DNA of 64,000 bases from an uncultured Rickettsiales bacterium (GCA_964405685.1 CAYOOP010000005.1:108713-172712), one strand, 5' to 3'. Numbered from the stretch's first letter, positions 6,761 through 52,825 are shown. Numbers and translations: made by a program. The notes: generated by a model not told the origin, from the sequence alone.

Positions 6761-6848
6761 CGTCATTGCGAGGAGGCAGCGCCGACAAAGCAATCCAACC
6801 TTGTAGCTAGGAGAGATGCTGGATTGCTTCACTACGCTCGCAACGACG
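6761..6848. repeat. MITE-like palindromic element, family B, copy 1
   Basis: Terminal inverted repeats CGTCATTGCGAG / CTCGCAACGACG and an internal caatccaa...ctggattgcttc pair. Fills the gap between two convergent stop codons. Second copy at 39340-39433. Confidence 0.75.
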
Positions 6849-6849
6849 G

Positions 6850-8007
6850 TTATAAAGCGCCACTCTGTTTGTAGGGCCGCATCTCAAAAATTTGCATGTA
6901 GGTATCAAGCGCGTAGCGGTCCGTCATGCCCGCGATATAGTCGCACGCGACGATAGCGGTTTGTTTGGTATTTGCACCATCCGTCAGCTTGCGCCATTCG
7001 GTGGGGAGGCATTCGGGTTCGCCCAGAAAGAAATTGAACAGTTGTTCGATCACACGCTTGGCTTTGCTCGACATGCGGTTGATGCGATAATGGCGGTACA
7101 TGCGTTCCATCAGGAAGGTTTTAAGCGCCTTGTTGGTGCGTTCCATTTCGGCGGAAAAGGTGACGAGAGGGTTGCCAGAATTTCTTACATCATCAATCGT
7201 TTTGATATTCGCTTTTTTGATATTTTCGCCTGTGGCGGCGAGCAAATCCATACACATGCGGTTGATCAACCGACGTGCAGCTTCGTGGGTTAGACGTTGT
7301 GTAGAAATGGTGGGGTGTTGTTTGTTCACTTCCGCAAACACATTGCCTACTTCTGGCACAGCCATCAAATCTTCCGGTGTAAACAGGCCTGCGCGGATGC
7401 CGTCGTCAATGTCGTGATTGTGGTAGGCGATGTCGTCTGCGAGTGAGGCAAGCTGGGCTTCCAGGCTTGGGTAGAGCGAAAGTTCAAGTTTGTTGATGTG
7501 TTCGAAGTCTACTAGTGCGCGGGGCAAAGGTTTTTTCACTGGCCCGTTGTGTTTCACCAGGCCTTCCAGTGTTTCGTAGGTGAGGTTGAGGCCATCAAAA
7601 TCCGCGTAGCGATGTTCGAGTTTGGTGACGATGCGGATGGTTTGCGCATTGTGGTCAAACCCGCCGAAAGATTCCATCGCGGCGCTCAAACCTTCCTCAC
7701 CCGCATGGCCAAAGGGCGGGTGGCCAAGGTCATGCGCGAGTGCGAGGGTTTCGGCGAGGTCTTCATTGAGTTTCAGCGCGCGTGCCAGAGAGCGCGCAAT
7801 CTGCGATACTTCCAAACTATGGGTAAGCCGCGTTCGGTAGTGGTCACCCTCGTGGTTCACAAACACCTGGGTTTTATATTCCAGCCTACGAAACGCAGTA
7901 GAATGTAAAATACGGTCGCGGTCGCGTTGATGCGGGCTGCGCATGCCACATTCTGGCTCTTTCAAAAATCGGCCGCGCGAATTTTCTGGGGTAATGGCGT
8001 AGGTCAT
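6850..8007 (-). CDS. dgt: dGTP triphosphohydrolase-like HD-domain protein
   Basis: 385 aa with RTRLTHSLEVSQIAR and LAHDLGHPPFGH HD motifs. Confidence 0.8.
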   Translation of the reverse strand: MTYAITPENSRGRFLKEPECGMRSPHQRDRDRILHSTAFRRLEYKTQVFVNHEGDHYRTRLTHSLEVSQIARSLARALKLNEDLAETLALAHDLGHPPFGHAGEEGLSAAMESFGGFDHNAQTIRIVTKLEHRYADFDGLNLTYETLEGLVKHNGPVKKPLPRALVDFEHINKLELSLYPSLEAQLASLADDIAYHNHDIDDGIRAGLFTPEDLMAVPEVGNVFAEVNKQHPTISTQRLTHEAARRLINRMCMDLLAATGENIKKANIKTIDDVRNSGNPLVTFSAEMERTNKALKTFLMERMYRHYRINRMSSKAKRVIEQLFNFFLGEPECLPTEWRKLTDGANTKQTAIVACDYIAGMTDRYALDTYMQIFEMRPYKQSGAL

Positions 8008-8060
8008 GTGTTGAGGCTACACCATCATCTCAGACGCAGCAAGTTCAAGCTATTGGGTGA

Positions 8061-8570
8061 TTAAACGTAAGAAAATGCTGCCGCTGTAGCTTGCTGCCTA
8101 ATGATTTGTTTGAGCCGATCAGCAATTGACCCGCTGTCACCCTCTCCGGCACTCACTAAATTCTGCTCAACCAATGTGTCTACTAGTTTAGGTGTAAGAG
8201 ATTGGCTTAAGGCAACACGCATTTTTTGTGCGGTATCTGTAGAGATAATTCCGTGTCTAAGAAGATTGCCAACGGAATCGCTATCGCCGGTATAATAGCG
8301 ACATTGGGTATCTCCTAGGGTTGCAGACGCAAAACAATTTACATCCGATTTAGATAGATAAAACTCGTTGCCGGGTTGGAAAAATTGTTGTGTTTTAGTT
8401 TCAGCGGGATCATCTGTTGATTCAGGCTCCCATTTTAATTCGATGCATAGGGGTTGGTTATTTTCAGGAATTATTGATGTGTTGCGTCTGGAAATACCGT
8501 CTACCATAGCAATATCATTAAGGGTCTTCTCAACATCAGCGGTGGGAAAGAAACGTACTTGTGTGGGCAT
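8061..8570 (-). CDS. Hypothetical protein (169 aa), apparently AT-richer accessory gene
   Basis: ORF with a GGAGG RBS, 11 bp downstream of the small ORF 8582-8734. No motif recognised. Confidence 0.5.
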   Translation of the reverse strand: MPTQVRFFPTADVEKTLNDIAMVDGISRRNTSIIPENNQPLCIELKWEPESTDDPAETKTQQFFQPGNEFYLSKSDVNCFASATLGDTQCRYYTGDSDSVGNLLRHGIISTDTAQKMRVALSQSLTPKLVDTLVEQNLVSAGEGDSGSIADRLKQIIRQQATAAAFSYV

Positions 8571-8581
8571 AAAACCTCCGA

Positions 8582-8734
8582 CTATACCAGTTGTTCGTTT
8601 TGGGGCGCTCGCGCATTGCGTCGTAAGACGTCAATGCTGACACGGGGATCAGGGGTATTGTCGTTATACTTAGATAACGTCGGCGGTTTTAAATTTGGTT
8701 GTTCCAATAGACTTTTGTTTTCGTCGTTTCCCAT
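8582..8734 (-). CDS. Small protein (50 aa from MGNDEN) with a TPDP...APQN tail related to the tails of ORFs 10001-10924 and 11668-12219
   Basis: Track ORF 8582..8794. The internal ATG at 8734 follows GGGGGA. The tail TPDPRVS...APQNEQLV aligns weakly to TPDPKLRGGGTITGPQQAVNVRAY. Confidence 0.4.
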   Translation of the reverse strand: MGNDENKSLLEQPNLKPPTLSKYNDNTPDPRVSIDVLRRNARAPQNEQLV

Positions 8735-8797
8735 AAATATCCCCCGTGTTTTTAATTTGAAGGCGAAACTAAACCTTGCGGTGAATAGGGGCACTCA

Positions 8798-8822
8798 GAT
8801 TTTTGTGAAACTTTTGTGACAG
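8798..8822 (-). promoter_or_regulatory. Pho-box-like 7-4-7 direct repeat, copy 3
   Basis: Minus strand reads CTGTCAC-AAAA-GTTTCAC-AAAA, 63 nt upstream of ATG 8734. The same architecture recurs at 10994-11016 and 12294-12316. Confidence 0.45.
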
Positions 8823-8838
8823 TCGCGTTGGAGGTAGG

Positions 8839-8867
8839 TTTACATGGAGGTGTATTCGCACTATACT
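8839..8867 (+). promoter_or_regulatory. Candidate sigma70-type promoter of erpA
   Basis: TTTACA (8839-8844), 17-nt spacer, TATACT (8862-8867). The -10 element ends 7 nt before the erpA ATG. Confidence 0.3.
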
Positions 8868-8874
8868 CGAAGGC

Positions 8875-9222
8875 ATGGAACCAAGCACCACGCCGTTTTC
8901 CGTGACTCCTTCCGCTGCTGCGCGCATTGCTGAATTGCTGCGCGATGAGCCGGCGGGGTCGGCATTTGTTGTTTCTGTTTTGGGCGGTGGATGTTCAGGG
9001 TTTCAATACCATTTTGATCTCGCTGTGAAGCCGCTGGAAGCAGGCGATATTGTGATTGAGGGGCAGGGCTCGAAAGTGTTGGTGGATGAGACCTCGATGG
9101 GGTTGCTTGCGGGGTCGGTGCTTGATTACACTGAAGACCTCGCGCAGGCCGGGTTTTCCATTAAAAACCCCAATGCTACCGCCAAGTGCGGTTGCGGGAA
9201 TAGTTTTTCGGTGAGTGTGTGA
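8875..9222 (+). CDS. erpA: Iron-sulfur cluster insertion protein (HesB/IscA family)
   Basis: 115 aa with GGGCSGFQY and the C-terminal CGCGNSF cysteine triad. Confidence 0.8.
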   Translation: MEPSTTPFSVTPSAAARIAELLRDEPAGSAFVVSVLGGGCSGFQYHFDLAVKPLEAGDIVIEGQGSKVLVDETSMGLLAGSVLDYTEDLAQAGFSIKNPNATAKCGCGNSFSVSV

Positions 9223-10004
9223 CTGTCTCTATCGCCACCTTCAACGTCAATTCCATCCGCGCGCGCCTGCCGAATGTGCTGGCGTGGCTGTGCGAGGCCA
9301 AGCCGGACATTGTGTTGTTGCAGGAACTCAAATGCGTAGATGAGCAATTCCCTGCGCTTGAAATTGAGGATTTGGGGTATAACTGCGCCATTTACGGCGA
9401 AAAAACCTATAACGGCGTGGCTATTCTCTCCAAATTCAAGTTGGAAGATGTTTCGCGCGGACTTCAAGGCGACGAGGCGGATACCCAGGCGCGGTATATT
9501 GAAGCACTGGTGCATACCCCTCTGGGTGTGATGCGTGTGGCCTCAGTCTATGTGCCCAATGGGCAGGAAGTAGGCAGCGATAAATTTGCTTATAAACTTA
9601 AATTTTTAGGCAGGTTATATGCAAAACTTAAAGCAATACTTGAATATGAAGAGATGGTGGTGATCGGTGGGGATTATAACGTCGCACCGGAGAATTTGGA
9701 TGTGTATGATTCTAGGCGTTTAAGTGAGACGGTATGCTTCCATTCCGAGGAGCGCAAGCGCTTGCGGAAAATACTCCACCTGGGGTATGCTGATGCCTTC
9801 CGGCAATTGCATCCGGATGATCCAGGTTTTTCCTGGTGGGATTATAGAGGTGGGGCATTTGAAGCCGGGCATGGCCTTCGCATCGACCATTTGCTGCTTT
9901 CGCCACAGGCGGCGGATCGCTTGACGGCGTGCGAAGTGCATACATCAGTCCGCGCGGCCGAAAAAGCCTCGGACCATGCGCCGGTGGTGGGGGTGTTTGG
10001 TTAA
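9219..10004 (+). CDS. xthA: Exodeoxyribonuclease III
   Basis: 261 aa with IATFNVNSIRARL, LQELK, GDYNVAP and SDHAPV motifs of the ExoIII/AP-endonuclease family. Confidence 0.85.
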   Translation: MTVSIATFNVNSIRARLPNVLAWLCEAKPDIVLLQELKCVDEQFPALEIEDLGYNCAIYGEKTYNGVAILSKFKLEDVSRGLQGDEADTQARYIEALVHTPLGVMRVASVYVPNGQEVGSDKFAYKLKFLGRLYAKLKAILEYEEMVVIGGDYNVAPENLDVYDSRRLSETVCFHSEERKRLRKILHLGYADAFRQLHPDDPGFSWWDYRGGAFEAGHGLRIDHLLLSPQAADRLTACEVHTSVRAAEKASDHAPVVGVFG

Positions 10005-10924
10005 TACGCGCGGACGTTTACGGCTTGTTGTGGGCCTGTTATGGTGCCACCACCTCTTAGTTTCGGGTCAGGCGTCCGATCCAGCGGTACTGTGGCAGAA
10101 CGCTGTGAGGCTTCAATCTGCTGCTCCCATGAAGTTTCGAGGGTTTCAAAGCGTTGCTGGCGTCGCAGCGATGCAAACACAGATTCAAATTCCTCCGCCG
10201 TCATAGCTATCACTTGACCCGTGGTGGCTTCATCTTTGACAAGTCCAGCAATCACATCCTGTTTTAGTCGTGCTTGTTGTTCAGGAGTAAGATCGGCGAG
10301 TGTGAACTCGGCGAATGCAGGCATGGTAGCTAATTCCGCGAGTTGTTGACGTCCTGTAACCTTAGGAGCGGTATGATTGTTAACCTGTATTTGCCAGTAC
10401 AGTAGGTCCGACAAGCTCTTTCTGTTGACTGCGGCATCCATTTCATTACGCCAGTGTTCCGTTAGTTCGGCATGGGTTGTCTCGTTTTTCCTTACTCTGG
10501 CTATAAGCATGTCGAATTCTGTTCCGTATGATCTCCGCCGTTCATCATCATTGGTAGGTGCAGCAAGCTGATCTCCTGCGTGTTTAGCCATAAAATTTCG
10601 GATGACGTCTGCTGTGGAATTATGGGTGCGATCTTCAATATACTGCGTTCTTAAAGTTGCAATTTCTTCGGGTGACAGGCTGGCAAGCATGACTTCTGCT
10701 TTTGCGGCAATTGTGGCGGAAAGACTGAGTAATTCCAAGTTATGTCCTGTAATACGATTGTGCGCTATTTCGCTTTTGTAATGACTAAGCTTCTTAAAGG
10801 CATCGAGCGGTGTTTGCGGATCAGCATCTTTCATCAGGCGATCGAATGAACCGGTGTCGTTTACGTCCATCCTGGCCTTGAGTGCTTGAAAGACCGGAAG
10901 TTCATTAAGGTCAATGTTAATCAT
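10001..10924 (-). CDS. Hypothetical protein P1 (307 aa), member of the tail-sharing family
   Basis: AAGGAG RBS. Two internal LA(S/D)L(S/T)PE(E/Q)...L(R/K) modules at aa 80-94 and 209-222. C-terminus is RTPDPKLRGGGTITGPQQAVNVRAY. Confidence 0.6.
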   Translation of the reverse strand: MINIDLNELPVFQALKARMDVNDTGSFDRLMKDADPQTPLDAFKKLSHYKSEIAHNRITGHNLELLSLSATIAAKAEVMLASLSPEEIATLRTQYIEDRTHNSTADVIRNFMAKHAGDQLAAPTNDDERRRSYGTEFDMLIARVRKNETTHAELTEHWRNEMDAAVNRKSLSDLLYWQIQVNNHTAPKVTGRQQLAELATMPAFAEFTLADLTPEQQARLKQDVIAGLVKDEATTGQVIAMTAEEFESVFASLRRQQRFETLETSWEQQIEASQRSATVPLDRTPDPKLRGGGTITGPQQAVNVRAY

Positions 10925-10993
10925 AAAGGACTCCTTCTGTTAGTTGTAGTTTGCCTTGCGTTTAACATTGCGTGGGAGGAGGCAGCAATGCAC

Positions 10994-11016
10994 GATTTAT
11001 GAATTTTTTGTGACAG
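10994..11016 (-). promoter_or_regulatory. Pho-box-like 7-4-7 direct repeat, copy 1
   Basis: Minus strand reads CTGTCAC-AAAA-AATTCAT-AAAT, 69 nt upstream of ATG 10924. Confidence 0.45.
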
Positions 11017-11020
11017 GGGC

Positions 11021-11063
11021 AAAGCCTCCGACCACGCGCCGGTGGTGGGGGCGCTGGGGTGAA
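11021..11063. repeat. Displaced copy of the xthA 3' terminus
   Basis: aaagcctccgaccacgcgccggtggtgggggcgctggggtgaa aligns to xthA 9963-10004 (aaagcctcggaccatgcgccggtggtgggggtgtttggttaa), stop codon included. Confidence 0.75.
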
Positions 11064-11098
11064 TATGTGTCGAATTCTGTTGAGAAAACTAGAAATTA

Positions 11099-11347
11099 AT
11101 GCCACAATCGGAGGCAGAGGTTTTGCTTATGCCTAGCATGAAAGAAATAACGGACGCGCTTGCTGTTCTGCCACTTGACGAACAAGAAAAGGTGCTGCAG
11201 GCGCTGCGCGCGGCTGACAGTGAGCGCACATTCTCGGAATTGGAAATAACAACGTTAAGAACAAGGGCGGCAACACCACCTGATGCTTATCAACCCTGGG
11301 AACGGGTGCGCGATAATATTTTGCTTGGGCTTATGTCCAAGCAATGA
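11099..11347 (+). CDS. Putative addiction-module antitoxin component
   Basis: 82 aa, or about 72 aa from MPSMKE at 11129. MKEITDALAVLPLDEQEKVLQAL resembles the small helical antitoxins that pair with ParE/RelE toxins. 4-bp ATGA overlap with the next ORF. Confidence 0.55.
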   Translation: MPQSEAEVLLMPSMKEITDALAVLPLDEQEKVLQALRAADSERTFSELEITTLRTRAATPPDAYQPWERVRDNILLGLMSKQ

Positions 11348-11667
11348 ATCCTCTTTCGCTCGTGGTCCATCCAGACGTAGCCTCAGACCTCAACTCTTTT
11401 ACAAAAAGCTATGAATACCTTGTACGCGGGCTGGGCACGCAGTTCGTGTTGGAGGTAGACTTTGTATTTGGGCGCATTGCTATTTTGCCGCGCTCATACC
11501 AGCTTTGTTTCGGCGAATTCCGGCGAGCGTTGCTGGATCGCTTTCCATTCGCGATAGGGTTTCGGGTGACAGACAAGGCGATTTATGTTGACGGAATCTT
11601 TCCAACCAAGGCCAGCCCTGACCGTATTGCAGATTTATTGAACGCACGCGCTGGTGGTGGTGTTTAG
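11344..11667 (+). CDS. ParE/RelE-family type II toxin
   Basis: 107 aa. RRALLDRFPFAIGFRVTDKAIYVDGIFPTKASP is a typical ParE/RelE C-terminal pattern. The last codons (ARAGGGV) lie inside a copy of the xthA 3' end. Confidence 0.6.
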   Translation: MNPLSLVVHPDVASDLNSFTKSYEYLVRGLGTQFVLEVDFVFGRIAILPRSYQLCFGEFRRALLDRFPFAIGFRVTDKAIYVDGIFPTKASPDRIADLLNARAGGGV

Positions 11668-11745
11668 CTAATACGCGCGGACATTTACGGCTTGTTGTGG
11701 GCCTGTTATGGTGCCACCACCGCTTAGTTCTGGGTCAGGCGTTTG
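11644..11745. repeat. ~100-bp repeat of the xthA-end / P1-end junction
   Basis: 11644-11745 aligns to 9975-10078 at roughly 90% identity by eye. It spans the xthA-like stop region and the last ~75 nt of the convergent gene. Confidence 0.8.
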
Positions 11746-12219
11746 CCTGGGGATTAGGACTAAAGATTTTGCCCATTTCTTACGTCTGTCGCTTAAAGAC
11801 ATTTGGCTGGTGTTGCGGATTTCATCGATGATAGGATCAACAAATATTTTACTAGAAGTTCTGTATCGATCTCTCGGACACAATGCAGGGTCAGATCCCT
11901 CAGGATCTGTGCGGTCCATCAAGTCCATGATCTCCTTTCGTTTCCAGCCCACTATTTGTTCCGTTAAGAATCCACGTAGAGGTTCCCATTGCTCATCTGT
12001 TAAGGACGCAAGTCGATGTTCTGCCTCCGCAGCCTTGCCGGATGAGATATATTCTCCGATAGGCGCAACCAAGGCGTCACGCTCCTGTTCGGTGCCAGAA
12101 AGAAGGGCCTTGTGTAACTGTCGAATAAGGTCTCTTGAGTGCACATACGTTAGCAAAACATCTAGGTTCTCTTCTGTCGACAATTGAGACGGCTCTGTTG
12201 GAGATGATATTTTGGACAT
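11668..12219 (-). CDS. Hypothetical protein P2 (183 aa), member of the tail-sharing family
   Basis: C-terminus QTPDPELSGGGTITGPQQAVNVRAY has its last 17 aa identical to P1. One LASLTDEQWEPLRGF module at aa 70-84. Confidence 0.6.
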   Translation of the reverse strand: MSKISSPTEPSQLSTEENLDVLLTYVHSRDLIRQLHKALLSGTEQERDALVAPIGEYISSGKAAEAEHRLASLTDEQWEPLRGFLTEQIVGWKRKEIMDLMDRTDPEGSDPALCPRDRYRTSSKIFVDPIIDEIRNTSQMSLSDRRKKWAKSLVLIPRQTPDPELSGGGTITGPQQAVNVRAY

Positions 12220-12293
12220 TGTTTAGGTCTTTCGCATTAAAAGTTTCAAGAGTCGGGAGATGGTACTGTGTCGCTTTATGCACAGCAATTAAC

Positions 12294-12316
12294 GATTTGT
12301 GAATTTTTTGTGACAG
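12294..12316 (-). promoter_or_regulatory. Pho-box-like 7-4-7 direct repeat, copy 2
   Basis: Minus strand reads CTGTCAC-AAAA-AATTCAC-AAAT, 74 nt upstream of ATG 12219, in the divergent intergenic region shared with the MarR gene. Confidence 0.45.
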
Positions 12317-12412
12317 TGGCTGTGGCCGTTGGTCTTGGTGGGGTGCAGCGTACATAAACCCTATCTTAACCACGATATGCTAGGATTAGCGGTGGATTAA
12401 CATGCCTGGAGA

Positions 12413-12880
12413 GTGGCTATGAAACAGCTTTATACCGAAACGATTTTGCTCATTGAGCGGCTGCACCGCCGGTTTTTAGATGTGGTTAATACTGAGCTGG
12501 AACGCCTGCGCATTGATGACATCAACAACGTGCAAACGCTGATTTTGTATAACATCAGCACGGAACAACTGACCATCGGTGAGTTGACCAACCGTGGTTA
12601 TTACCTTGGCTCCAACGTGTCGTATAACGTGAAGAAACTGGTGGAGAATAAATATCTGCTGCAGGAAAAAGCACCGCACGACAAGCGTTCGGTGCGGATT
12701 AAGCTCTCCGAAAAAGGCCTGAAGCTGTGCCAGCAGATTGATGCGCTGTATGAGCGCAATGTCGACGCGTTGAAAAACACTACGCCAACCGAAGCCGATA
12801 TTCAGCGGACTAACGATACGCTTTCGCGCTTGGAGCGGTTTTGGACCGATTATATTAATACGGCGTATAAGCTGAAATAA
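12413..12880 (+). CDS. MarR-family winged-helix transcriptional regulator
   Basis: 155 aa. LTIGELTNRGYYLGSNVSYNVKKLVENKYLLQEKAPHDKRSVRIKLSEKG has the MarR wHTH pattern. Start may be ATG 12419. Confidence 0.7.
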   Translation: MAMKQLYTETILLIERLHRRFLDVVNTELERLRIDDINNVQTLILYNISTEQLTIGELTNRGYYLGSNVSYNVKKLVENKYLLQEKAPHDKRSVRIKLSEKGLKLCQQIDALYERNVDALKNTTPTEADIQRTNDTLSRLERFWTDYINTAYKLK

Positions 12881-12884
12881 TTCA

Positions 12885-12972
12885 CGTCATTCCCGCGTAG
12901 GCGGGAATCTGTTCGCTTATAAAAATAGTGATTACTTTGCGAGTGGATCCCTGACCTCACGCGGGGATGACG
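12885..12972. repeat. MITE-like palindromic element, family A, copy 1
   Basis: CGTCATTCCCGCGTAGGCGGGAATC ... GCGGGGATGACG. Occupies the whole gap between the convergent MarR and thiD stop codons. Confidence 0.75.
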
Positions 12973-12973
12973 C

Positions 12974-13867
12974 TTATTTATGTTCCCACATATGCCACAG
13001 CGGGCCGGTGCCTTTGCCTAGTTTAGGCGCGTTTGTGATGGCGCCGGCGACGTAAGTGTGGGCGCGTTCCACCGCATTTTTTAAATCCATTCCGCTACCG
13101 ATAAATGTTGCGAGCGCCGAGGCCATGGTGCAGCCGGTGCCGTGGGTGTTTTTGGCCTTCAAGCGCGGTGCTTCAAAGACGGTGACGGTGGTGCCGTCAA
13201 AGAGGATGTTGAACACGTTCTTTCCCTCCAAATGCCCGCCTTTGACGAGCACGTTCCTGGGGCCAAGCTTGTGAATACGTTTTGCCGCTTCAATCATGTC
13301 TGCTTGCGAGATTATTTGCATTCCTGCCAGAATTTCTGCTTCAGGAATGTTGGGAGTAACTAAGTAAGCAAGAGGCAGGAGTTTGGTTTTAAGCGCAGCT
13401 ACCGCTTCTGTTTGCAGCAGTGCCGCACCACCTTTTGCGACCATGACGGGGTCGACCACCAACGGAATTGTTCCCCCCGCTTGCGGGGGGATACAGGGGG
13501 GAATACCCCCACCCACTGCGCTAACGCCTTTGGCGTAAGCTCCGTTACCCTCCCCCGCGAGCGGGGGAGGTTTACTAAGGGCAGATACCACTGCCTCAAT
13601 TGCCGCACTGGTCGAAAGCATTCCCGTTTTAATGGCATCCGCGCCGATATCGCTTAAGCACAATTTGATTTGCTGGGTGATGAACGTGGGTGGCACGTCG
13701 TGAATATCGAAGACGCCTTGTGTGTTTTGTGCGGTTAAGGCGGTGATCGCCGTCATCGCGTAACCGGCTAGGGCCGTTACGGTTTTGAGGTCGCCTTGAA
13801 TGCCGGCGCCGCCGCCGGAATCGGAACCGGCGATGATGAGAATGCGTGGGATCATACTAGTTGTCAT
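12974..13867 (-). CDS. thiD: Hydroxymethylpyrimidine/phosphomethylpyrimidine kinase with an in-frame repeat-derived insertion
   Basis: 297 aa with IAGSDSGGGAGIQGDLKT, VVDPVMVAKGG and THGTGCT ThiD motifs. An extra ~33 aa (PPPLAGEGNGAYAKGVSAVGGGIPPCIPPQAGG) is encoded by repeat D1. Confidence 0.85.
   Translation of the reverse strand: MTTSMIPRILIIAGSDSGGGAGIQGDLKTVTALAGYAMTAITALTAQNTQGVFDIHDVPPTFITQQIKLCLSDIGADAIKTGMLSTSAAIEAVVSALSKPPPLAGEGNGAYAKGVSAVGGGIPPCIPPQAGGTIPLVVDPVMVAKGGAALLQTEAVAALKTKLLPLAYLVTPNIPEAEILAGMQIISQADMIEAAKRIHKLGPRNVLVKGGHLEGKNVFNILFDGTTVTVFEAPRLKAKNTHGTGCTMASALATFIGSGMDLKNAVERAHTYVAGAITNAPKLGKGTGPLWHMWEHK
13470..13570. repeat. G/C-hairpin palindromic element, family D, copy 1 (inside thiD, in frame)
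   Basis: TTCCCCCCGCTTGCGGGGGGA and CCTCCCCCGCGAGCGGGGGAGG terminal hairpins. Its reverse complement matches 57886-58013 apart from a ~27-bp internal indel. Confidence 0.8.
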
Positions 13868-24562: not shown

Positions 24563-24672
24563 CGTCATTCCCGCGAAAGCGGGAATCTAGCGTCCGCCGT
24601 CTGGCGGACAAGAAGCAACCTTTTTACGGCGTAGACACGCCTTACTGGATCCCGTCTTTCGACGGGATGACG
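24563..24672. repeat. MITE-like palindromic element, family A, copy 2
   Basis: CGTCATTCCCGCGAAAGCGGGAATC ... CCCGTCTTTCGACGGGATGACG. Fills the gap between the convergent rpoN and ispB stops. Confidence 0.75.
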
Positions 24673-40162: not shown

Positions 40163-40270
40163 CCCCATTTGTCATCATATTGTAACTTTCCTTTTACTAT
40201 CGGTTGGTGCATTGCCTATAGGCGTGCCAAGATTTCTGGGGCTAATTAATAACAAAATTGAGGGGATACT

Positions 40271-41605
40271 ATGTTTACAACTACAGAAACATTTGCCGTT
40301 CCAGCCGATAAAATGACCGCTGCGGCAACGCTGCCAACTGATTGGCAGGAAGCCACACTGATTGGCCGCGTTATGACTAAGGATGGTCCATCTGTTGTAT
40401 TTGTGCGTGAGGACGGTAAGGTAGTGGATATTACCAAATCCTATCCAACCACCACCGATTTATTTGAAGAAGAAGACCCTGCGGCACAGGCACGTCGTGC
40501 AGCACTTACGGGACAGGTGATTGGTAATGTTGATGATATTATTGCAAACTCTTCTGTGCGCGATCCCAATAAGCCTTATATGCTCGCTCCCACAGACTAT
40601 CAGGAAATACACGCTGCCGGTGTTACCTTTACGAAGTCCATGATTGAGCGGATTATTGAGGAGGCAGCAACACTAAAAGCGACGGGCCCCGATGGTAAGA
40701 TTGATGATGCCAAATTGGACACGCTACGCGACGAAATTAATGCACAAGTCCAAGCAATCGTAGGAGAAGGAAAGAAATTCTCTGATGTAAAACCAGGTTC
40801 TCCTGAAGCTATTAGAATATTGCAAGAAATGCTAAAGCAAGGCATCTCCAAACATTACCCTCAAGTTGGACTGGGTGAAGAGGGTGAAGAATTTTGTAAA
40901 GCGGTGACTGCCGTGGGGCATGGTGCACAAGCAGGATATACGACTCCAAAAGAGGGCATTGATTCTTGGGTTAACCCCGAACCGGAAGTGGTCCTTGTTG
41001 CCAACTCAAAAGGAAAGATTGTTGGTGCTGCAGCAGGTAACGATGGTAATGACAGGGACAAAGAGGGCAGATCACTGGCCTATCTATACCGTGCCAAAGT
41101 TGTCAATGGCAGCACAGTCATTGGCCCGTTTATTCGCGTATTTGATAAAGATTTTAATCTGGATTCAATCCGTAACACGGAGGTTTCACTGAAAGTAACA
41201 CGTCAAGATGGCAGTGTTAAATTTGAAGGCAAAAACAGAATGGGTGAGATGACACGCGAGCCGAAAGATATTGTAGCCGCCGCCTTTGATGCGGAACGCC
41301 AACACCCCGAAGGGTTAGCCATATTCTTAGGCACGTCGATTATTCCTGAAAAAGATGACAGAGGAAATAAATTCACTCATGAACCTGGCGATATCGTGAC
41401 TATTGGAACGCCTGAACTTGGTCATTTTACCAATGTTATGCTGCCCGCTAATAGAGTGCAGGGTTTAGAACAAGGACCCTTGGCGCGTGCTCGTAACCTT
41501 GCCCAACGTAATTTGCTGCTACAAGAAACCCTACAAAAAACCACGTCTTATGCCGAAAATTGGGGTAGCAAACGCGGCGATGATTTAGCGGTGCATCTTT
41601 TGTAA
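40271..41605 (+). CDS. Fumarylacetoacetate hydrolase (FAH)-family protein
   Basis: 444 aa, appears AT-richer. C-terminal half has NPEPEVVLV...GNDGNDRD...IGPFI...GDIVTIGTPELG, consistent with the FAH fold and its metal ligands. Confidence 0.5.
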   Translation: MFTTTETFAVPADKMTAAATLPTDWQEATLIGRVMTKDGPSVVFVREDGKVVDITKSYPTTTDLFEEEDPAAQARRAALTGQVIGNVDDIIANSSVRDPNKPYMLAPTDYQEIHAAGVTFTKSMIERIIEEAATLKATGPDGKIDDAKLDTLRDEINAQVQAIVGEGKKFSDVKPGSPEAIRILQEMLKQGISKHYPQVGLGEEGEEFCKAVTAVGHGAQAGYTTPKEGIDSWVNPEPEVVLVANSKGKIVGAAAGNDGNDRDKEGRSLAYLYRAKVVNGSTVIGPFIRVFDKDFNLDSIRNTEVSLKVTRQDGSVKFEGKNRMGEMTREPKDIVAAAFDAERQHPEGLAIFLGTSIIPEKDDRGNKFTHEPGDIVTIGTPELGHFTNVMLPANRVQGLEQGPLARARNLAQRNLLLQETLQKTTSYAENWGSKRGDDLAVHLL

Positions 41606-46440: not shown

Positions 46441-47397
46441 ATGCGTATCGGTGCGTTTGCTCTTACGGTTCTTGCATCGTCCACCGCCTATGCCGCTAGC
46501 TGGCCCAGTGCGCTGACCTATAAAGGCCAGCCGATTACCCGCTGTTTGGAAGCGTTGCCGATGGAGGAGGCGTCGCGCAGTAAGCCGCTGGATCTCGCGG
46601 CGTGTTCTGCTCCCGATCCGCAAATACAGGACAGCGAACCCAATCAAGATTTAATTTCGCAAGGCTTCATTGGTCGCAGCTACACCACGGGCGAGGGCGC
46701 AAATCCCGCCTATGGTTACTACAAGGTGCTTGGCCCTTATCGCGGTGGCTATTTGGTGTATGGTTTGTGGAGCGGCGGCGGCTTGGCCCAATTCTCTTCG
46801 CTCGATGTCATCAAACGCAAAGGCGACACCATTTGGGTCGAGCGCGAAATCGCGAGTGGCGACCGTTGCAATAATGGCATCACTGAAGCGTGGCTCGAGC
46901 GTGGCAAGTTATTTTATAAGGTCAACTTCACACCCTACGATATTATTGTACACGCAGATATTCCCGTGACGGTGAAAACCTCCGACGATTTGGAAAGCAC
47001 GCCAACCAGCTGTTTTGCGACCGCTACATTTGCGCAGTCGCGCGACAATCAGCCTGATTTTTATGTCATGGCGCTGAATCAGGAAAACCCTGATGCGCTA
47101 ATTTCCGATGTTGAGTGGACGCGAAACTACCGTTATCAGACCTGTTTTAACACTCTGTTCTTAGATGCGTTGCAGTCGGGCTCGGTTTCGTTTGATAAAA
47201 AGGCGCTCACCGCCTGGGTCAAAGGGTTTTATGAAACCTGCGTGAATCAAAAAGTGATTGATGAAAAACCGTTTGAAGTCAACCCCCCAGAGCCAACGCC
47301 ACAGTCCATTGAAGTAAAGCCAATGGACGCGCCGGTCGAAGTGCCGATGATTTATTCGGAGCCCGATAGCGGCGTGGATCAAGGAGACGGCCAATGA
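46441..47397 (+). CDS. Secreted hypothetical protein (318 aa) embedded between nuoG and nuoH
   Basis: Track ORF 46249..47397 trimmed to the ATG 1 nt after the nuoG stop. Signal peptide [18 protein letters not shown], several Cys, a Pro/Glu-rich tail. The stop overlaps the nuoH start. Confidence 0.6.
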
Positions 47398-48392
47398 TGG
47401 AGTTGATCAACATCCTCATGCCGCTGCTGATTATTGTCGGCAAAATCCTGCTGGTTGTCGTACCACTACTGATTTGCGTGGCGATGCTCACCTATTTCGA
47501 GCGCAAAGTCATCGCGGCGATGCAGCTGCGCAAAGGTCCGAATATGATTGGTCCGTTTGGGTTGCTGCAAGCATTTGCCGATGGCGCGAAATTGTTTCTG
47601 AAAGAGACGATTATTCCGTCTGAGTCCAACAAAGTGATTTTTTTCCTTGCGCCCATGCTTACGTTTTCGCTGGCGCTGCTTGGCTGGGCGGTGATTCCGA
47701 TTTCAGAGTATTTCGTGATCGCCGATATCAACGTCGGTATTCTTTATCTCTTTGCGATTTCTTCGCTCGGCGTCTACGGCATCATCATGGCCGGGTGGGC
47801 GAGCAATTCGAAATACGCGTTTTTGGGTGCGATTCGCTCCTCCGCGCAGATGGTTTCTTATGAAGTGTCGATCGGCTTTGTCATCGTCACGGTGCTGATG
47901 GTCGTCGGCTCACTCAATCTAAACGACATCGTGCACGCGCAGGCAGACGGTTGGTTTGCCTTCTCGCCGCTCTTTCCGATGTTCATCGTCTTCTTCATTT
48001 CCGCGCTTGCTGAAACCAACCGCCATCCATTTGATCTGCCGGAGGCCGAAGGTGAATTGGTTGCCGGTTACAACGTTGAATATTCATCCATGACCTTCGC
48101 GCTGTTTTTCCTCGGTGAATACGCGAATATGATTTTGATGTCGGGCATGGTGACCATCCTCTTCCTCGGTGGTTGGCTGCCCCCGCACCACGCGCTTGCC
48201 TTTATTCCTGGCGGTATTTGGTTTGCGCTAAAAGTCTCCGTCTGCCTCTTCGTTTTCATCTGGGCACGCGCCACCTTGCCGCGCTATCGCTACGATCAAC
48301 TCATGCGCCTGGGCTGGAAGATCTTCCTGCCGTTTTCGCTGCTGTGGGTGGTGGTGATTGCCGCTTGGGTCGTCTTTTTTCAGGGGCATTAA
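47394..48392 (+). CDS. nuoH: NADH-quinone oxidoreductase subunit H
   Basis: 332 aa with [17 protein letters not shown] and [18 protein letters not shown] motifs. Confidence 0.9.
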
Positions 48393-49013
48393 GTGATCGA
48401 GCACGCTATGACATGGCTGGTCGAATTGGTGCATAGCTTGGGCTATGTGGGGCTGTTTATTCTCACGGCGATGGAAAGTATGTTCTTTCCAATTCCGTCC
48501 GAAACTACGATGATTCCTGCCGGTTACCTCGTGCATCAGGGTGAGTGGAACATGGCGGTGGTGTGGATCATCGGCGTTACGGGTACGATTGTGGGTTCGC
48601 TTCTGAATTACTGGATTGCGTACATCATGGGCCGTCCATTTCTGGAACGCTACGGCAAATATATGTTCTTCGATCAGGCGCGCATGGCGCAGATGGAAGA
48701 GTATTTTAAAGTGCACGGAGAGATTTCGATTTTCACTTCACGTTTTATTCCCGGCGTGCGCCATGTGATTTCGTTCCCTGCGGGCCTTGCGAAAATGGAT
48801 CTGAAGCGCTTCACGTTTTTTACTGCTTTGGGCGGCGGCATGTGGATGACGGTGTTGATGTTCGTCGGCTATCAAATCGGTGACAATAAAGACTTGGTTC
48901 ACAAGTATATGCCCTATATAACACTCGCGTGTATCATCGGTGTGGCGGCGCTTATCACCTATTACGTCTGGCGCCACCGCAGCAAAAAGAAGGTCATGAA
49001 TGGCACTGTTTAA
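48393..49013 (+). CDS. dedA: DedA-family membrane protein embedded between nuoH and nuoI
   Basis: 206 aa with [19 protein letters not shown] and [16 protein letters not shown] DedA signatures. Starts directly after the nuoH stop and overlaps nuoI by 14 nt. Confidence 0.75.
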
Positions 49014-49488
49014 ACGTACCGCGCGCGCATTTTTGTTGACCGAGCTGGTGGTCGGCTTTGGCATCACGCTTAAATACATGTTCAAAAAACCGGTGACGAT
49101 CAACTATCCGTACGAAAAAGGCCCGCTTTCTCCGCGTTTCCGCGGTGAGCACGCGCTGCGTCGCTATCCCAACGGCGAAGAACGTTGCATCGCCTGCAAA
49201 CTCTGCGAGGCGATTTGCCCTGCGCAAGCGATCACCATCGAAGCCGAACCGCGCGAAGATGGCAGTCGCCGCACCACACGTTATGACATTGACATGACCA
49301 AGTGCATCTACTGCGGCCTGTGCCAGGAAGCTTGCCCGGTGGATGCGATCGTCGAAACCCCAAATTTTGAATTCGCAACGTTTACGCACGAAGAACTGCT
49401 CTACGACAAAAACAAACTCCTCGAAAACGGCGAACGCTGGGAACCGGCGATTGCTGCTAATTTGTTGAAAGATGCGGCGTACAGGTAA
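49000..49488 (+). CDS. nuoI: NADH-quinone oxidoreductase subunit I
   Basis: 162 aa with two ferredoxin motifs, [12 protein letters not shown] and [12 protein letters not shown]. Confidence 0.9.
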
Positions 49489-49496
49489 AACTCATA

Positions 49497-49935
49497 CCCT
49501 CTCCCGCGTGCGGGAGAGGGTTAGGGAGAGGGTGGATAGACAAGGAGAAACCATTGCGGGAAAACGCCAAACTTAAGCAAGCCAAGCAATTGCGGAAGCA
49601 GATGACGGAAGCTGAGAACTTGTTGTGGTATTATTTGCGCGCCGAAAGATTTTTGGGTTTCAAGTTTCGTCGCCAGGTGCCCATAGAAGGTTATGTTGCG
49701 GATTTTGCCTGTGTTCACCCTCCGGTCATTATCGAGGTTGATGGCGGTGGGCATACCACACAACAAGAAAAAGATAAAATACGCGATGAAGTCTTGCGAA
49801 AACGTGGCTATAAGGTATTACGTTTTTGGAATAATGAGGTATTCGAGAATATTGAAGGCGTGTCGATGACGATTAAAAATGCACTTGAGACTTCCCCTCT
49901 CCCCCACCCCTCTCCCGCACGCGGGCGAGGGGAGA
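49497..49935 (+). mobile_element. DUF559 gene bracketed by ~39-bp inverted repeats (family E), inserted between nuoI and nuoJ
   Basis: Left end CCCTCTCCCGCGTGCGGGAGAGGGTTAGGGAGAGGGTGG (49497-49535). Right end CCCCTCTCCCCCACCCCTCTCCCGCACGCGGGCGAGGGGAG (49893-49935) is approximately its reverse complement. Confidence 0.65.
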
Positions 49936-49952
49936 AGGTCTGCGTGTTATGA
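49554..49952 (+). CDS. DUF559 (Vsr-like endonuclease fold) domain protein
   Basis: 132 aa with a TTG start after AAGGAG. MTEAENLLWYYLR...FRRQVPIEGYVADFAC...IIEVDGGGH...VLRFWNNEV is the DUF559 pattern. The tail SPLPHPSPARGRGE is repeat-encoded, and the stop overlaps the nuoJ ATG. Confidence 0.75.
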   Translation: MRENAKLKQAKQLRKQMTEAENLLWYYLRAERFLGFKFRRQVPIEGYVADFACVHPPVIIEVDGGGHTTQQEKDKIRDEVLRKRGYKVLRFWNNEVFENIEGVSMTIKNALETSPLPHPSPARGRGEKVCVL

Positions 49953-50551
49953 CCGAACTCATTCCCACCCTCTTATTCTACATCTTCGCAGCCGGGGTGC
50001 TCGGTTCGGCGGTGATGGTGGTTGCGGCGCGGAACCCCGTGCACTGCGTATTGTTTTTGATTTTCTCGTTCTTTAACGCCGCCGGTTTATTTGTGCTGCT
50101 TGGCGCCGAGTATTTGGCGATGACGCTGGTGATTGTCTATGTTGGCGCAGTGGCCGTGTTGTTCCTGTTCGTGGTGATGATGCTGAATATTGACCTTGCA
50201 CAGGTCCGCCAAGGATTTTTAAAGCATATGAGTGTGGGTATGACGATTGCGGGAACGCTGGCCTTTGAACTTTTGCTCGTGGTCTACCTCTCGTTGCTTA
50301 ACCCCGGCATACTCGCCGCAGCCCGCAACCCAACTTATTCCGAGCGTGACCTCACCAACACCCATGCGCTGGGCCAGGTGATCTATACGGATTATTTGCT
50401 CGCGTTCCAAATGTCCGGCCTCGTGCTGCTGGTTGCCATGATCGGCGCTATTGTGCTGACGCTTCGCCACCGCCCCGGCGTGCGCAAACAAGTGATTTCC
50501 AAGCAGCTCGCGCGCAAGCGCGAAGATGCAATTGAGATTGTGAGGCACTAA
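49949..50551 (+). CDS. nuoJ: NADH-quinone oxidoreductase subunit J
   Basis: 200 aa. TM protein with [32 protein letters not shown]. Confidence 0.85.
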
Positions 50552-50877
50552 TGGACACAGAATTCTTCGGTTCCATCGGCATATTTCACTATCTCGTAGT
50601 CTCGAGCCTGCTGTTCATGCTCGGCATTTGCGGCATATTCCTCAACCGCAAAAACGTGATTACGATTTTGATGTCGATTGAGTTGATGCTGCTTGCCGTG
50701 AACATCAATTTCGTCGCCTTCTCCGTCAAACTCGGTGATCTTTCCGGTCAGATATTCGCCATGTTCGTGCTTACCGTCGCCGCGGCCGAAGCCGCGATCG
50801 GCCTTGCTATCCTCGTTATTTTCCATCGCAACAAAGGGTCGATTGCCGTGGAAGACATTCATGAGTTGAAGGGTTGA
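50551..50877 (+). CDS. nuoK: NADH-quinone oxidoreductase subunit K
   Basis: 108 aa with [24 protein letters not shown] and [13 protein letters not shown]. Confidence 0.85.
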
Positions 50878-50878
50878 T

Positions 50879-52825
50879 ATGATCGCAGCGATTGTCTTTT
50901 TACCCCTCCTCGCCGCGCTGATTGTTGGCCTAAACAGCCGCCGGATTTCCGACGGTGCGGCGCACTGCATCACCTCCGGCGCGATGGTCGTTTCCGCCAT
51001 CTTGTCCTTCTCCATCTTCATGCAATTCGCGCATCACGGCATGGCCGAGCCCGGTATGTTCGAAACGGTGGTTTATAAAGTGCATTTATTGCAATGGATC
51101 AATTCTGGGGATTTTTCTGCCGAGTGGTTGCTGCGTGTTGATGCACTCACCGCGGTGATGTTGCTCGTGGTCACGAACGTCTCTGCCGTCGTGCATCTCT
51201 ACTCGCGCGGTTACATGCACGAAGACCCGCACCAGCCGCGCTTTATGGCGTATCTCTCGCTATTTACCTTCTTTATGTTGATGTTGGTAACGTCCGACAA
51301 TCTCGTGCAACTCTTCGTGGGCTGGGAAGGCGTGGGCCTGTGCTCCTATTTGCTTATCGGCTTCTGGTACAAAAAGAAAGAAGCCTGCGCGGCCGCCATT
51401 AAAGCGTTCCTCGTCAACCGCGTGGGCGACATCGGCTTCGCGCTCGGCATTTTCGCGGTTTATTCGCTCTTCGGCAGCGTGCAATTCGATACGATTTTTA
51501 GCCGCGTGGAGGAATTAAAAGACGCACGTTTCATGTTCCTCGGTCATGAGTTCCACGCGCTCACCGTTACCTGCATTTTGCTCTTCATCGGCTGCATGGG
51601 TAAATCCGCGCAAATAGGCCTCCATACCTGGTTGCCGGATGCGATGGAAGGCCCCACGCCTGTTTCCGCACTCATCCACGCCGCGACGATGGTGACCGCC
51701 GGTGTATTCCTCCTCGTCCGCTGTTCACCACTGTTCGAACAAGCGCCCACGGCGCTAATGGTCGTAACTGTCGTTGGCGCAACCACCGCATTTTTCGCCG
51801 CAACTGTCGGCATGGTGCAAAACGATATCAAGCGGGTGATTGCGTATTCCACCTGCTCGCAGCTTGGCTATATGTTTTTTGCGTGCGGCGTGGGTGCGTA
51901 TGGCGCGGCGATTTTCCACCTTATGACCCACGCGTTTTTCAAAGCGTTGCTGTTCCTTGGTGCCGGCTCAGTGATTCACGGCATGAGCGGCGAGCAGGAC
52001 ATGCGCAAGATGGGCGGGATTTGGAAAATCATGCCTGTGACCTATGCGATGATTTGGATTGGTTCGCTGGCGCTTGCGGGCATTCCGTTCTTTGCCGGAT
52101 TTTATTCGAAAGATTTGATTTTGGAAGCGGCCTATGCGCATGGCGGCGTAGGCTTATTTGCGTTCTGGATCGGTATTGCTGCGGCGTTCATCACTGCGTT
52201 TTATTCCGGCCGGTTGATATTCATGACCTTCCACGGCACATCCCGCGCGGATCGCCATGTGCTCGAACACGCGCATGAATCGCCGACGTATATGCTGGCA
52301 CCGCTTTCATGGTTGGTATTGGGTAGCATCTTCGCTGGTGCGCTTGGCATGCTGGTGTTTGGCATGGCCTCGGGCGATACGCGGTTTTGGCAAGCCTCGA
52401 TTGCATCGCATGAAGCGATTGAACTCGCGCACCATGTGCCCACCTGGGTGCAGTTAATTGCAACGGTAATTGCGGTTGCAGGCCTTGCATTTTCGTACAA
52501 CCTCTATATGCGCCGCGCGGATATACCTGGTAAAATCGCTGCGAAATTCCCTGGTATTTACAAATTCCTGCTTAACAAATGGTATTTCGATGAGTTGTAT
52601 GACTTCCTATTTGTGAATCCCGCCAAGCGGCTTGGGTATTGGCTGTGGAAGCGCATTGATGCGGGGACGATTGATCGCCTGGGGCCAAACGGTGCGGCGG
52701 CGGTGTCCAAATTTGCAAGCAAGCGCGCGACGAAATTGCAAACGGGGTATGTCTATCACTATGCATTTGCCATGTTAATCGGCGTGCTCGGCTTTGTTAC
52801 TTGGGTGGTGTTTCATGTGCTTTAA
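50879..52825 (+). CDS. nuoL: NADH-quinone oxidoreductase subunit L
   Basis: 648 aa. Antiporter-like subunit with FVGWEGVGLCSYLLIGFW and WLPDAMEGPTPVSALIHAATMVTAGV. Confidence 0.9.
   Translation: MIAAIVFLPLLAALIVGLNSRRISDGAAHCITSGAMVVSAILSFSIFMQFAHHGMAEPGMFETVVYKVHLLQWINSGDFSAEWLLRVDALTAVMLLVVTNVSAVVHLYSRGYMHEDPHQPRFMAYLSLFTFFMLMLVTSDNLVQLFVGWEGVGLCSYLLIGFWYKKKEACAAAIKAFLVNRVGDIGFALGIFAVYSLFGSVQFDTIFSRVEELKDARFMFLGHEFHALTVTCILLFIGCMGKSAQIGLHTWLPDAMEGPTPVSALIHAATMVTAGVFLLVRCSPLFEQAPTALMVVTVVGATTAFFAATVGMVQNDIKRVIAYSTCSQLGYMFFACGVGAYGAAIFHLMTHAFFKALLFLGAGSVIHGMSGEQDMRKMGGIWKIMPVTYAMIWIGSLALAGIPFFAGFYSKDLILEAAYAHGGVGLFAFWIGIAAAFITAFYSGRLIFMTFHGTSRADRHVLEHAHESPTYMLAPLSWLVLGSIFAGALGMLVFGMASGDTRFWQASIASHEAIELAHHVPTWVQLIATVIAVAGLAFSYNLYMRRADIPGKIAAKFPGIYKFLLNKWYFDELYDFLFVNPAKRLGYWLWKRIDAGTIDRLGPNGAAAVSKFASKRATKLQTGYVYHYAFAMLIGVLGFVTWVVFHVL

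Follow-up and report, generated by a model that had tools for sequence, protein, structure and literature searches.

Three probable PhoB-type promoters upstream of orphan genes in an uncultured Rickettsiales bacterium

The locus described here raises the question of why three apparently unrelated genes should be preceded by the same direct repeat, and whether this repeat places them under one regulator. The stretch analysed (the window from here on) comprises 64,000 nucleotides of an uncultured Rickettsiales bacterium (GCA_964405685.1, CAYOOP010000005.1:108713-172712), and the element in question is a Pho-box-like motif formed by two 7-bp half-sites and a 4-bp spacer. The three sites were read directly on the minus strand, exactly where a sequence-only reading had placed them: site 1 (8822-8802) is CTGTCACAAAAGTTTCACAAA, which divides into CTGTCAC-AAAA-GTTTCAC-AAA; site 2 (11016-10996) is CTGTCACAAAAAATTCATAAA, or CTGTCAC-AAAA-AATTCAT-AAA; and site 3 (12316-12296) is CTGTCACAAAAAATTCACAAA, or CTGTCAC-AAAA-AATTCAC-AAA. 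The motif is real and non-random. The reading preferred here, held with moderate confidence and drawn from sequence comparison, is that the three sites are PhoB-type (Pho-box), activator-dependent sigma-70 promoters in which the 21-mer would be a strong distal box.

The pattern CTGTCACAAAA(RW)TTCAYAAA was identified three times in the window, always on the minus strand and 88-97 nt before the three start codons. A scan of both strands of the 64 kb with the degenerate 21-mer CTGTCACAAAARWTTCAYAAA, allowing up to three mismatches, recovered these three sites and no others, which bears out the earlier impression that the motif occurs nowhere else in the window (shuffle expectation 0.02 per window; 0 of 100 shuffles reach three). 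Every site is upstream of an open reading frame (ORF) of the same strand, with start codons at 8734, 10924 and 12219 and gaps of 63, 69 and 74 nt; the distance is therefore similar and not, as had been claimed, fixed. The conserved segment comprises the motif first reported but is longer, approximately 32-38 nt (repeat D2: 8789-8826, 10983-11020 and 12283-12320), and in the alignment of the three upstream regions it is formed by the motif plus A-TGC at positions 28-32. Block copies 2 and 3 are 89% identical, whereas copies 1 and 2 are only 63% identical. The flanks and leader of site 1 are unrelated to those of the other two, and the motif alone is common to all three; because of this, site 1 counts as independent of sites 2 and 3.

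Compared with the E. coli Pho consensus (CTGTCAYAWAWCTGTCAY), site 1 agrees at 16 of 18 positions and sites 2 and 3 at 15, these being the top three scores in the window; matches of 13-14/18 occur at the frequency of the shuffled background. The first half-site, CTGTCAC, is complete (7/7), the spacer is AAAA and the period is 11 bp, as in a Pho-box repeat.

The same sequence was identified before phosphate genes in other organisms. GTDB was scanned, one genome per species, for CTGTCACAAAANNTTCAYAAA, and 89 stretches were recovered (the window's own sites not among them) vs about nine by a rough estimate that assumes uniform composition. Many of these, with their three or four half-sites repeated every 11 bp, are obvious Pho promoters, for example in the Acidithiobacillia (loci L006, L020, L027 and L066), Allomesorhizobium (L003) and the Rhodospirillales (L052). 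A Pfam search of 57 downstream proteins identified two of PstS type, two polyphosphate kinases, one regulator of OmpR/PhoB type and three TonB-dependent receptors; the Pho genes behind the motif are pstS in L052, a phoB-like gene in L042, ppk in L032 and L084, and a PstS-type gene in L069. In L052 the 21-mer is flanked by the gene of a phoR-like kinase and that of a phosphate-binding protein of the periplasm (PDB 9jwy_A, E 1e-90), in a promoter with three tandem half-sites and a -10-like hexamer at +51. Chromatin immunoprecipitation sequencing (ChIP-seq) of E. coli PhoB includes the near-identical sites TGTCACAAAAGAATCACT and TGTCATAAAGTTGTCACG (PMC10294691), and the predicted PhoB boxes of S. 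meliloti overlap the -35 element or sit further upstream (PMC3616915).

The position of the -10 element agrees with this class of promoter. When 91 exact occurrences of the 21-mer (from GTDB genomes, one contig of the Joint Genome Institute (JGI) and the window) were anchored at the motif start, TAnnnT was found 12 times at offset 51 and 14 times at offset 52, vs approximately two per offset elsewhere. It is present at offsets 51-53 in 26 of the 91 sites, two of them being window sites 1 and 3, and this class includes both the promoters with four good half-sites (the Acidithiobacillia L006, L020, L027 and L066) and the pstS promoter of L052. The extended motif was found in a single unrelated contig of the JGI metagenomes (L091), with its -10 at +52. 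In the window, the -10-like hexamers are TAGTTT for site 1 (8766-8771, minus) and TACCAT for site 3 (12260-12265, minus), both at positions 52-57 from the site start, whereas site 2 presents there a weaker, extended -10-like TGtTAAACG (10959-10967, minus; positions 50-58), which resembles TGgTAAAC at the same place in locus L041. No sigma-70 promoter with both -35 and -10 was detected upstream of the three genes, as is expected of activator-dependent promoters. Positions 23-40 are weakly Pho-like, with C23, T26 and A28 enriched. The motif together with the -10 offset thus points to the geometry of a two-box Pho promoter, with the conserved 21-mer as the distal box.

Other types of promoter were compared with the same block. 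It could be read as a promoter for a sigma factor of the extracytoplasmic function (ECF) type, with TGTCAC as -35 and CGT as -10. Alphaproteobacterial EcfG promoters have the form GGAAC-N16-17-CGTT, and sites 2 and 3, which read GTCAC-N15-CGT(T/G), are loosely similar to it. However, the gap falls short by one or two nt, CGT is missing from this place in site 1, and the 27 sites of the same geometry show no conservation at positions 23-26. What is enriched 52 nt downstream is instead a -10 of sigma-70 type, and in view of all this the ECF promoter is scarcely credible. A sigma-54 promoter was rejected, as the TGC lies 22 nt, instead of 5 nt, after the CAC of TGTCAC. The A-TGC itself (8791-8795, 10985-10989 and 12285-12289, minus) is identical in the three sites and is not conserved in the sites of other genomes; its identity may be due to chance, since sites 2 and 3 are paralogous.

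A mechanism can be proposed for PhoB-type promoters of this shape. The 18-bp unit CTGTCAC-AAAA-nnTTCAY would be the strong promoter-distal box, bound by a head-to-tail dimer of a phosphorylated winged-helix response regulator of PhoB type. The next 18 bp (positions 23-40) would serve as a weak proximal box in place of the -35, the -10 hexamer would occupy positions 52-57 and the transcription start would fall near position 64, with leaders about 24-33 nt long. At low phosphate, phosphorylated PhoB would occupy the distal box, cover the proximal one as well by cooperative binding and bring in RNA polymerase, and three transcription units encoding four orphan proteins would be turned on. As the match to the Pho box includes both sequence and spacing, the three genes are probably switched on together at low phosphate. 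We infer that PhoB itself, and not a PhoB-like paralogue, is the binder in this organism, and the phosphate response and the transcription start are taken in the same way; the identity of the regulator is a matter of inference because the window holds no pst or pho genes.

How far the three sites count as separate evidence depends on their history. Sites 2 and 3 belong to a tandem duplication of two units and 1058 bp, which copied the 3' end of xthA (Exo_endo_phos by Pfam) along with them: in each of the repeats D3, D4 and D7 the two starts are 1058 apart, and the blocks follow in the same order. Unit A (9963-11020) comprises the last 38 nt of xthA, the convergent gene of a 307-residue protein, its leader and the 38-nt promoter block. 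Unit B, which begins at 11021 immediately past site 2, comprises a relic of the xthA end, the gene of a 183-residue protein and the third promoter block. Identities between the units are 87% for the xthA tail, 91% for the 3' end of the genes and 89% for the promoter block. The native xthA end (9963-10000, plus) reads KASDHAPVVGVFG and a stop, and the relic (11021-11058, plus; D3, 87% identical), which abuts site 2, reads KASDHAPVVGALG.

The shared gene ends form repeat D1, 94 nt and 91% identical, which comprises 25 codons, the stop and 19 nt beyond. Copy a (9982-10075) holds the last 25 codons of the 307-residue gene (TPDPKLRGGGTITGPQQAVNVRAY) and its 19 nt past the stop double as the 3' end of xthA; copy b (11649-11742) holds the last 25 codons of the 183-residue gene and its 19 nt now supply the last codons of a ParE-like ORF. 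The 25-residue tail common to both proteins is TPDPxLxGGGTITGPQQAVNVRAY. It apparently does not belong to a wider family: a profile search gave no hit at E <= 10 and a codon-degenerate DNA search of the JGI metagenomes gave 0 matches. The sequence-only reading had described the genes as unrelated-looking, which is true of their bodies and not of these last 94 nt. Between the two bodies no residual homology was detected (short, non-collinear DNA matches were judged to be chance) and the leaders are not alignable.

An insertion of 609 bp (11057-11665) interrupts the relic, and a direct repeat of 19 nt (11038-11056 and 11647-11665) flanks the insertion. Within it lies a pair of ORFs (11099-11667, plus) with a 4-nt overlap, an antitoxin-like one of 82 residues and a ParE-like one of 107 residues; neither has a Pfam match, the latter aligns over its full length with ParE2 (8c26_A, E 0.005) and its last six codons derive from the xthA relic.

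Judged by these alignments, the promoter blocks of sites 2 and 3 are paralogous, that is, copies by descent. They are therefore not independent, and the evidence in the window amounts effectively to two sites. Three blocks of approximately 90% identity around non-homologous bodies cannot be explained by uniform divergence; on these alignments, either one gene body was replaced or the ends were homogenised.

This history suggests that the motif might have no regulatory role at all, sites 2 and 3 being leftovers of the duplication and site 1 a chance or relic match. It was foreseen earlier that the motif could be just part of a longer duplicated segment; this holds for sites 2 and 3, which stand at equivalent positions of units that retain a similar identity (87-91%) elsewhere, and does not extend to site 1. 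The latter shares only the motif with the others and yet fits all 21 positions of the pattern, where 0.02 matches per window are expected. Moreover, the 38-nt promoter block was kept in units whose leaders and bodies can no longer be aligned, and the motif recurs at the same distance from the -10 across many genomes and at orthologous positions. A mere leftover is thus considered improbable. With regard to a single PhoB-type regulon, the proposal is supported in part, by the Pho-box sequence and the promoter geometry and not by sites 2 and 3 taken as separate evidence.

The genes downstream of the three sites encode four proteins. Site 1 (in a divergent intergenic region shared with erpA) is the proposed distal box of a unit with two ORFs: one of 50 residues (8582-8734, minus), preceded by the Shine-Dalgarno-like GGGGGA, and one of 169 residues (8061-8570, minus), which follows after 11 nt and has GGAGG as Shine-Dalgarno sequence. 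Both are probably co-transcribed. Site 2 precedes the 307-residue ORF (10001-10924, minus; Shine-Dalgarno AAGGAG), which converges on xthA, with an overlap of the two at their stop codons, and site 3 precedes the 183-residue ORF (11668-12219, minus), which has only its last 25 residues in common with the 307-residue protein.

No Pfam domain was identified in any of the four, nor was an N-terminal signal peptide found by eye. A word-indexed search of 5.8 billion proteins with the 307- and 169-residue proteins gave self hits only, and when 1.84 billion representatives were searched exhaustively with HMMER, nothing was recovered besides the 307-residue protein itself and the tail of its 183-residue paralogue. 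The AlphaFold model of the 307-residue protein, made without an alignment, is all-helical with a disordered C-terminal tail and of low confidence (mean predicted local distance difference test, pLDDT, 50), and that of the 169-residue protein is unusable (mean pLDDT 36); with such values the models are too poor for fold searches. To judge from the searches, the four proteins are species-specific orphans with no function recognisable from sequence. Neither a tRNA nor a credible Rfam match was found over 7500-13500, where the single Rfam hit (E 0.23) was below threshold and was attributed to chance.

A small detail concerns the 50-residue ORF, which presents TPDP exactly 20 residues from its end, as do the 307- and 183-residue proteins. 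The remainder of its tail is dissimilar (5/25 identities). The TPDP is possibly a remnant of a common ancestral mini-gene, or chance; the indication is weak.

Divergent from site 3 is a MarR-family gene (12413-12880, plus; HTH_27 and MarR_2 by Pfam), whose product had been put forward as an alternative regulator of the three genes, acting through the motif. Regulation of a divergent neighbour is common for MarR proteins, and the start of this gene is indeed 97 bp from a site, though this site is the third in the order listed (12316) and not the second copy, as had been written. Against such a role, MarR dimers bind palindromes or pseudopalindromes, while the sites are head-to-tail repeats with an 11-bp period; two of the three copies, sites 1 and 2, lie far from the gene (3.6 and 1.4 kb); and a MarR homologue was identified in none of the 89 other motif loci (tblastn, E <= 1e-8). 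Control by the MarR protein is very improbable.

Orphan genes were also identified behind the motif in other organisms. About 22 of the GTDB hits are in metagenome-assembled genomes (MAGs) of uncultured alphaproteobacteria, several of them labelled Rickettsiales, with 43-65% G+C. In these MAGs the motif lies 92-114 nt before the starts of hydrophilic proteins set among housekeeping genes, and no Pfam domain was found in 15 of the 15 orphan proteins scanned. Exceptions are TrbC/VirB2 pilin genes, solitary among housekeeping genes, in two unrelated MAGs. One of these, SXRF01, has four exact sites and a fifth near-match; in locus L082 (6004-6680) the site precedes two tandem VirB2 genes, and the divergent neighbour encodes a Ppx/GppA exopolyphosphatase. 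The other is an alphaproteobacterial MAG of mouse gut (L048, 2460-2930) with a single VirB2 gene behind the motif.

The MAGs L041 and L086 contain orthologous orphans (70% amino acid identity) downstream of dnaE, both with the motif. In their intergenic regions only the 24-nt motif and a -10 of the form TGnTAnAC were kept, the remainder having diverged, so positional conservation, on which the earlier interpretation partly depended, is seen in this pair of other alphaproteobacterial MAGs. L086 also has a near-copy of the motif at the orphan that follows, and its FumC is 79% identical to that of the window. Orphans with their own boxes among core genes are thus present in other alphaproteobacterial MAGs, and the arrangement in the window has parallels. 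No description of orphan genes with own Pho boxes among core genes was found in the literature. The recurrent link of the box to orphans and VirB2 pilins is suggestive, in a limited sample.

In locus L021 (4623-5559, minus), a canonical single-box Pho promoter (CTGTCATCAAACTGTCAT, 10 nt, TATGCT) precedes the gene of a hypothetical protein of 298 residues with the sequence HELSH (HExxH). The same MAG also carries the 21-mer before another orphan.

The targets just described bear on the main rival to PhoB, namely another regulator of the OmpR/PhoB family with a PhoB-like half-site preference, such as CenR or a lineage-specific host-interaction regulator, that would respond to a signal different from phosphate, for example envelope or host cues. 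The VirB2 genes of L082 and L048 and the 15/15 orphans without Pfam domains resemble a host-interaction regulon more than phosphate scavenging, and the position of the site upstream of the would-be -35 (about -63 to -46) is the usual class I position for regulators of the OmpR family as a whole. The usual host-interaction regulator of alphaproteobacteria is ChvI/BvrR. According to its title, a study of A. tumefaciens found that an E. coli phoB mutation is complemented by chvI (Mantis and Winans 1993). However, the ChvI consensus sequences in print differ and are GC-rich, with TTGC-N3-GCAA for Caulobacter and direct repeats of GCC for S. meliloti (PMC9731502), and a ChvI/BvrR-type site was rejected as unlike CTGTCAC-N4-nnTTCAY. 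Read as its reverse complement, the motif does contain the CenR consensus TGA-N8-TGA (PMC9275681), a sequence too short and too poor in information to discriminate. The complete 7-bp CTGTCAC is the half-site of PhoB, and the same 21-mer with the same geometry precedes pstS beside phoR in an alphaproteobacterium (L052). Another regulator of the family is considered unlikely.

Several points weigh against promoters of PhoB type. The second half-site (AATTCAY or GTTTCAC) fits the CTGTCAY consensus at just 4-5 of 7 positions. The proximal box is degenerate in all three sites, where the -35 region should be filled, and the classical position of a single box, abutting the -10, is unused at the three sites. 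Nothing recognisable links the target genes to phosphate, and no pst, pho or OmpR-family gene was identified within the 64-kb window. In the cross-genome scan the 21-mer fixes the motif positions, and conservation within the motif cannot therefore be judged from that set. Finally, many E. coli PhoB sites are transcriptionally inert (PMC10294691). To these is added the duplication of sites 2 and 3 described above.

An additional repeat was observed elsewhere in the window. At 40170-40197 (plus, intergenic) there are three half-sites with an 11-bp period, TGTCAT-N5-TGTAAC-N5-TTTTAC, located 101 nt before an ORF of 444 residues (40271-41605) with a weak match to FAA hydrolase, and TACTAT lies 9 nt past the second half-site. 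It could be a fourth, weaker promoter of Pho type; its consensus score of 13/18 is at background level.

If the sites are PhoB-type promoters, the four orphan proteins would gain a regulatory context, induction under phosphate limitation through PhoB, and the window would provide a clean case of lineage-specific genes that joined a conserved regulon by way of a strong distal Pho box. The promoter type is already known; the interest lies in the orphan targets and in the recurrent link to orphans and VirB2. The pattern across genomes, in which the box keeps its distance from a -10 before Pfam-less orphans and solitary VirB2 genes of uncultured alphaproteobacteria, is a concrete lead and suggests how host-associated alphaproteobacteria might couple genes related to secretion to their phosphate status. 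A wider and rather doubtful proposal is that a PhoB-type regulator was co-opted in probably host-associated alphaproteobacteria for fast-evolving, lineage-specific proteins and type IV pilin genes, with low phosphate as the cue for a secretion or effector programme, the promoter block and the disordered 25-residue tail (a candidate export signal) being kept as modules while the body was replaced. The tandem units, with promoter and 3'-end modules around non-homologous bodies, would be a small case study of gene assembly.

The window belongs to an alphaproteobacterium of about 52% G+C in which CckA, a Caulobacter-type FtsN, RpoN and nuo genes are present. The housekeeping neighbours of the sites are genes for an HD-domain hydrolase, erpA, xthA, the MarR-family gene and thiD, and a 3.2-kb public contig (SRR7369912, Logan) is 100% identical to 6801-10046. 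No genes of a type IV secretion system were found among the window ORFs scanned.

Other elements of the window were noticed in passing. A palindromic element of approximately 100-135 nt, with two G/C hairpins (CCCCCGCnnGCGGGGG; 4 hits vs 0.04 expected), is inserted in frame in two protein-coding genes: thiD (13468-13570, minus) and an AddB-like gene (57885-58012, plus). The two align well with each other and run the same way with respect to the genes that host them; in thiD, about 33 residues (PPPLAGEGNGAYAKGVSAVGGGIPPCIPPQAGG) are added, which fall between positions 95 and 96 of the ThiD profile. The element is reminiscent of Rickettsia palindromic elements. A second G/C hairpin, TTCCCGCnnnnGCGGGAA, was identified at 12890-12907, in the gap between the MarR gene and thiD, and at 24568-24585, after rpoN, both intergenic (2 hits vs 0.01 expected); it may be an element similar to repetitive extragenic palindromes or a terminator. 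Lastly, unrelated genes break up the row of nuo (complex I) genes at 47394-52825: one encodes a VTT-domain membrane protein (48393-49013), and another is DUF559 endonuclease-like (49554-49952).

Among known systems the natural reference is the E. coli pstS promoter, which is activated by phosphorylated PhoB and is established to hold two tandem Pho boxes. The promoter sequence compared matches 5,423 E. coli genomes, and from its end to pstS there are 42 nt. This puts the start of the distal box 106 nt from the start codon, with TATTTT at +51 counted from that box. The window sites share with it the 7-4-7 direct repeat, the first half-site CTGTCA(T/C), the apparent absence of a -35, a distal box 51-52 nt before the putative -10 and a box start at approximately 90-107 nt from the start codon. 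Differences are that pstS of E. coli has four recognisable half-sites, whereas the window sites have a strong distal pair and a degenerate proximal one, and that the window genes are orphans with no phosphate transporter among them. A second reference is the pstS promoter of a Rhodospirillales MAG (L052), with the identical 21-mer and its -10-like hexamer (+51 in L052); unlike the window sites it has a third perfect half-site, CTGTCAC, after the 21-mer and a canonical Pho target.

The assembly of the tandem genes can be compared with the terminal reassortment of type III effectors, in which a shared promoter and a signal-bearing terminus are joined to unrelated bodies. The 307- and 183-residue genes likewise share a promoter block (38 nt, 89%) and a disordered 25-residue tail (94 nt, 91%). 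Unlike in terminal reassortment, the tail is present in only two genes of one genome, which is not known to have a secretion system. The shared ends are accounted for equally well by a simple duplication of the locus, after which the body was replaced.

As for the regulon, PmrA of Legionella and Coxiella is a regulator of the OmpR family with a tandem-repeat site upstream of the Dot/Icm effector genes. Its many unrelated, lineage-specific target genes share, like the genes of the window, a tandem repeat placed at a constant distance before the -10. The PmrA half-site, in contrast, is of TTAA type, and neither type IV secretion genes (among the window ORFs scanned) nor evidence of effectors was found for the window.

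A regulator of the PhoB family was studied by ChIP-seq in the intracellular Waddlia chondrophila, where the regulon comprises mostly promoters of hypothetical proteins as well as the type III secretion gene sctE (PMC4989314). Waddlia belongs to a different phylum and its binding consensus is different, and nothing in the window points to an intracellular organism or to a secretion system. The Waddlia targets nevertheless parallel the orphan and VirB2 targets of the motif in uncultured alphaproteobacteria and represent their nearest precedent (PMC4989314).

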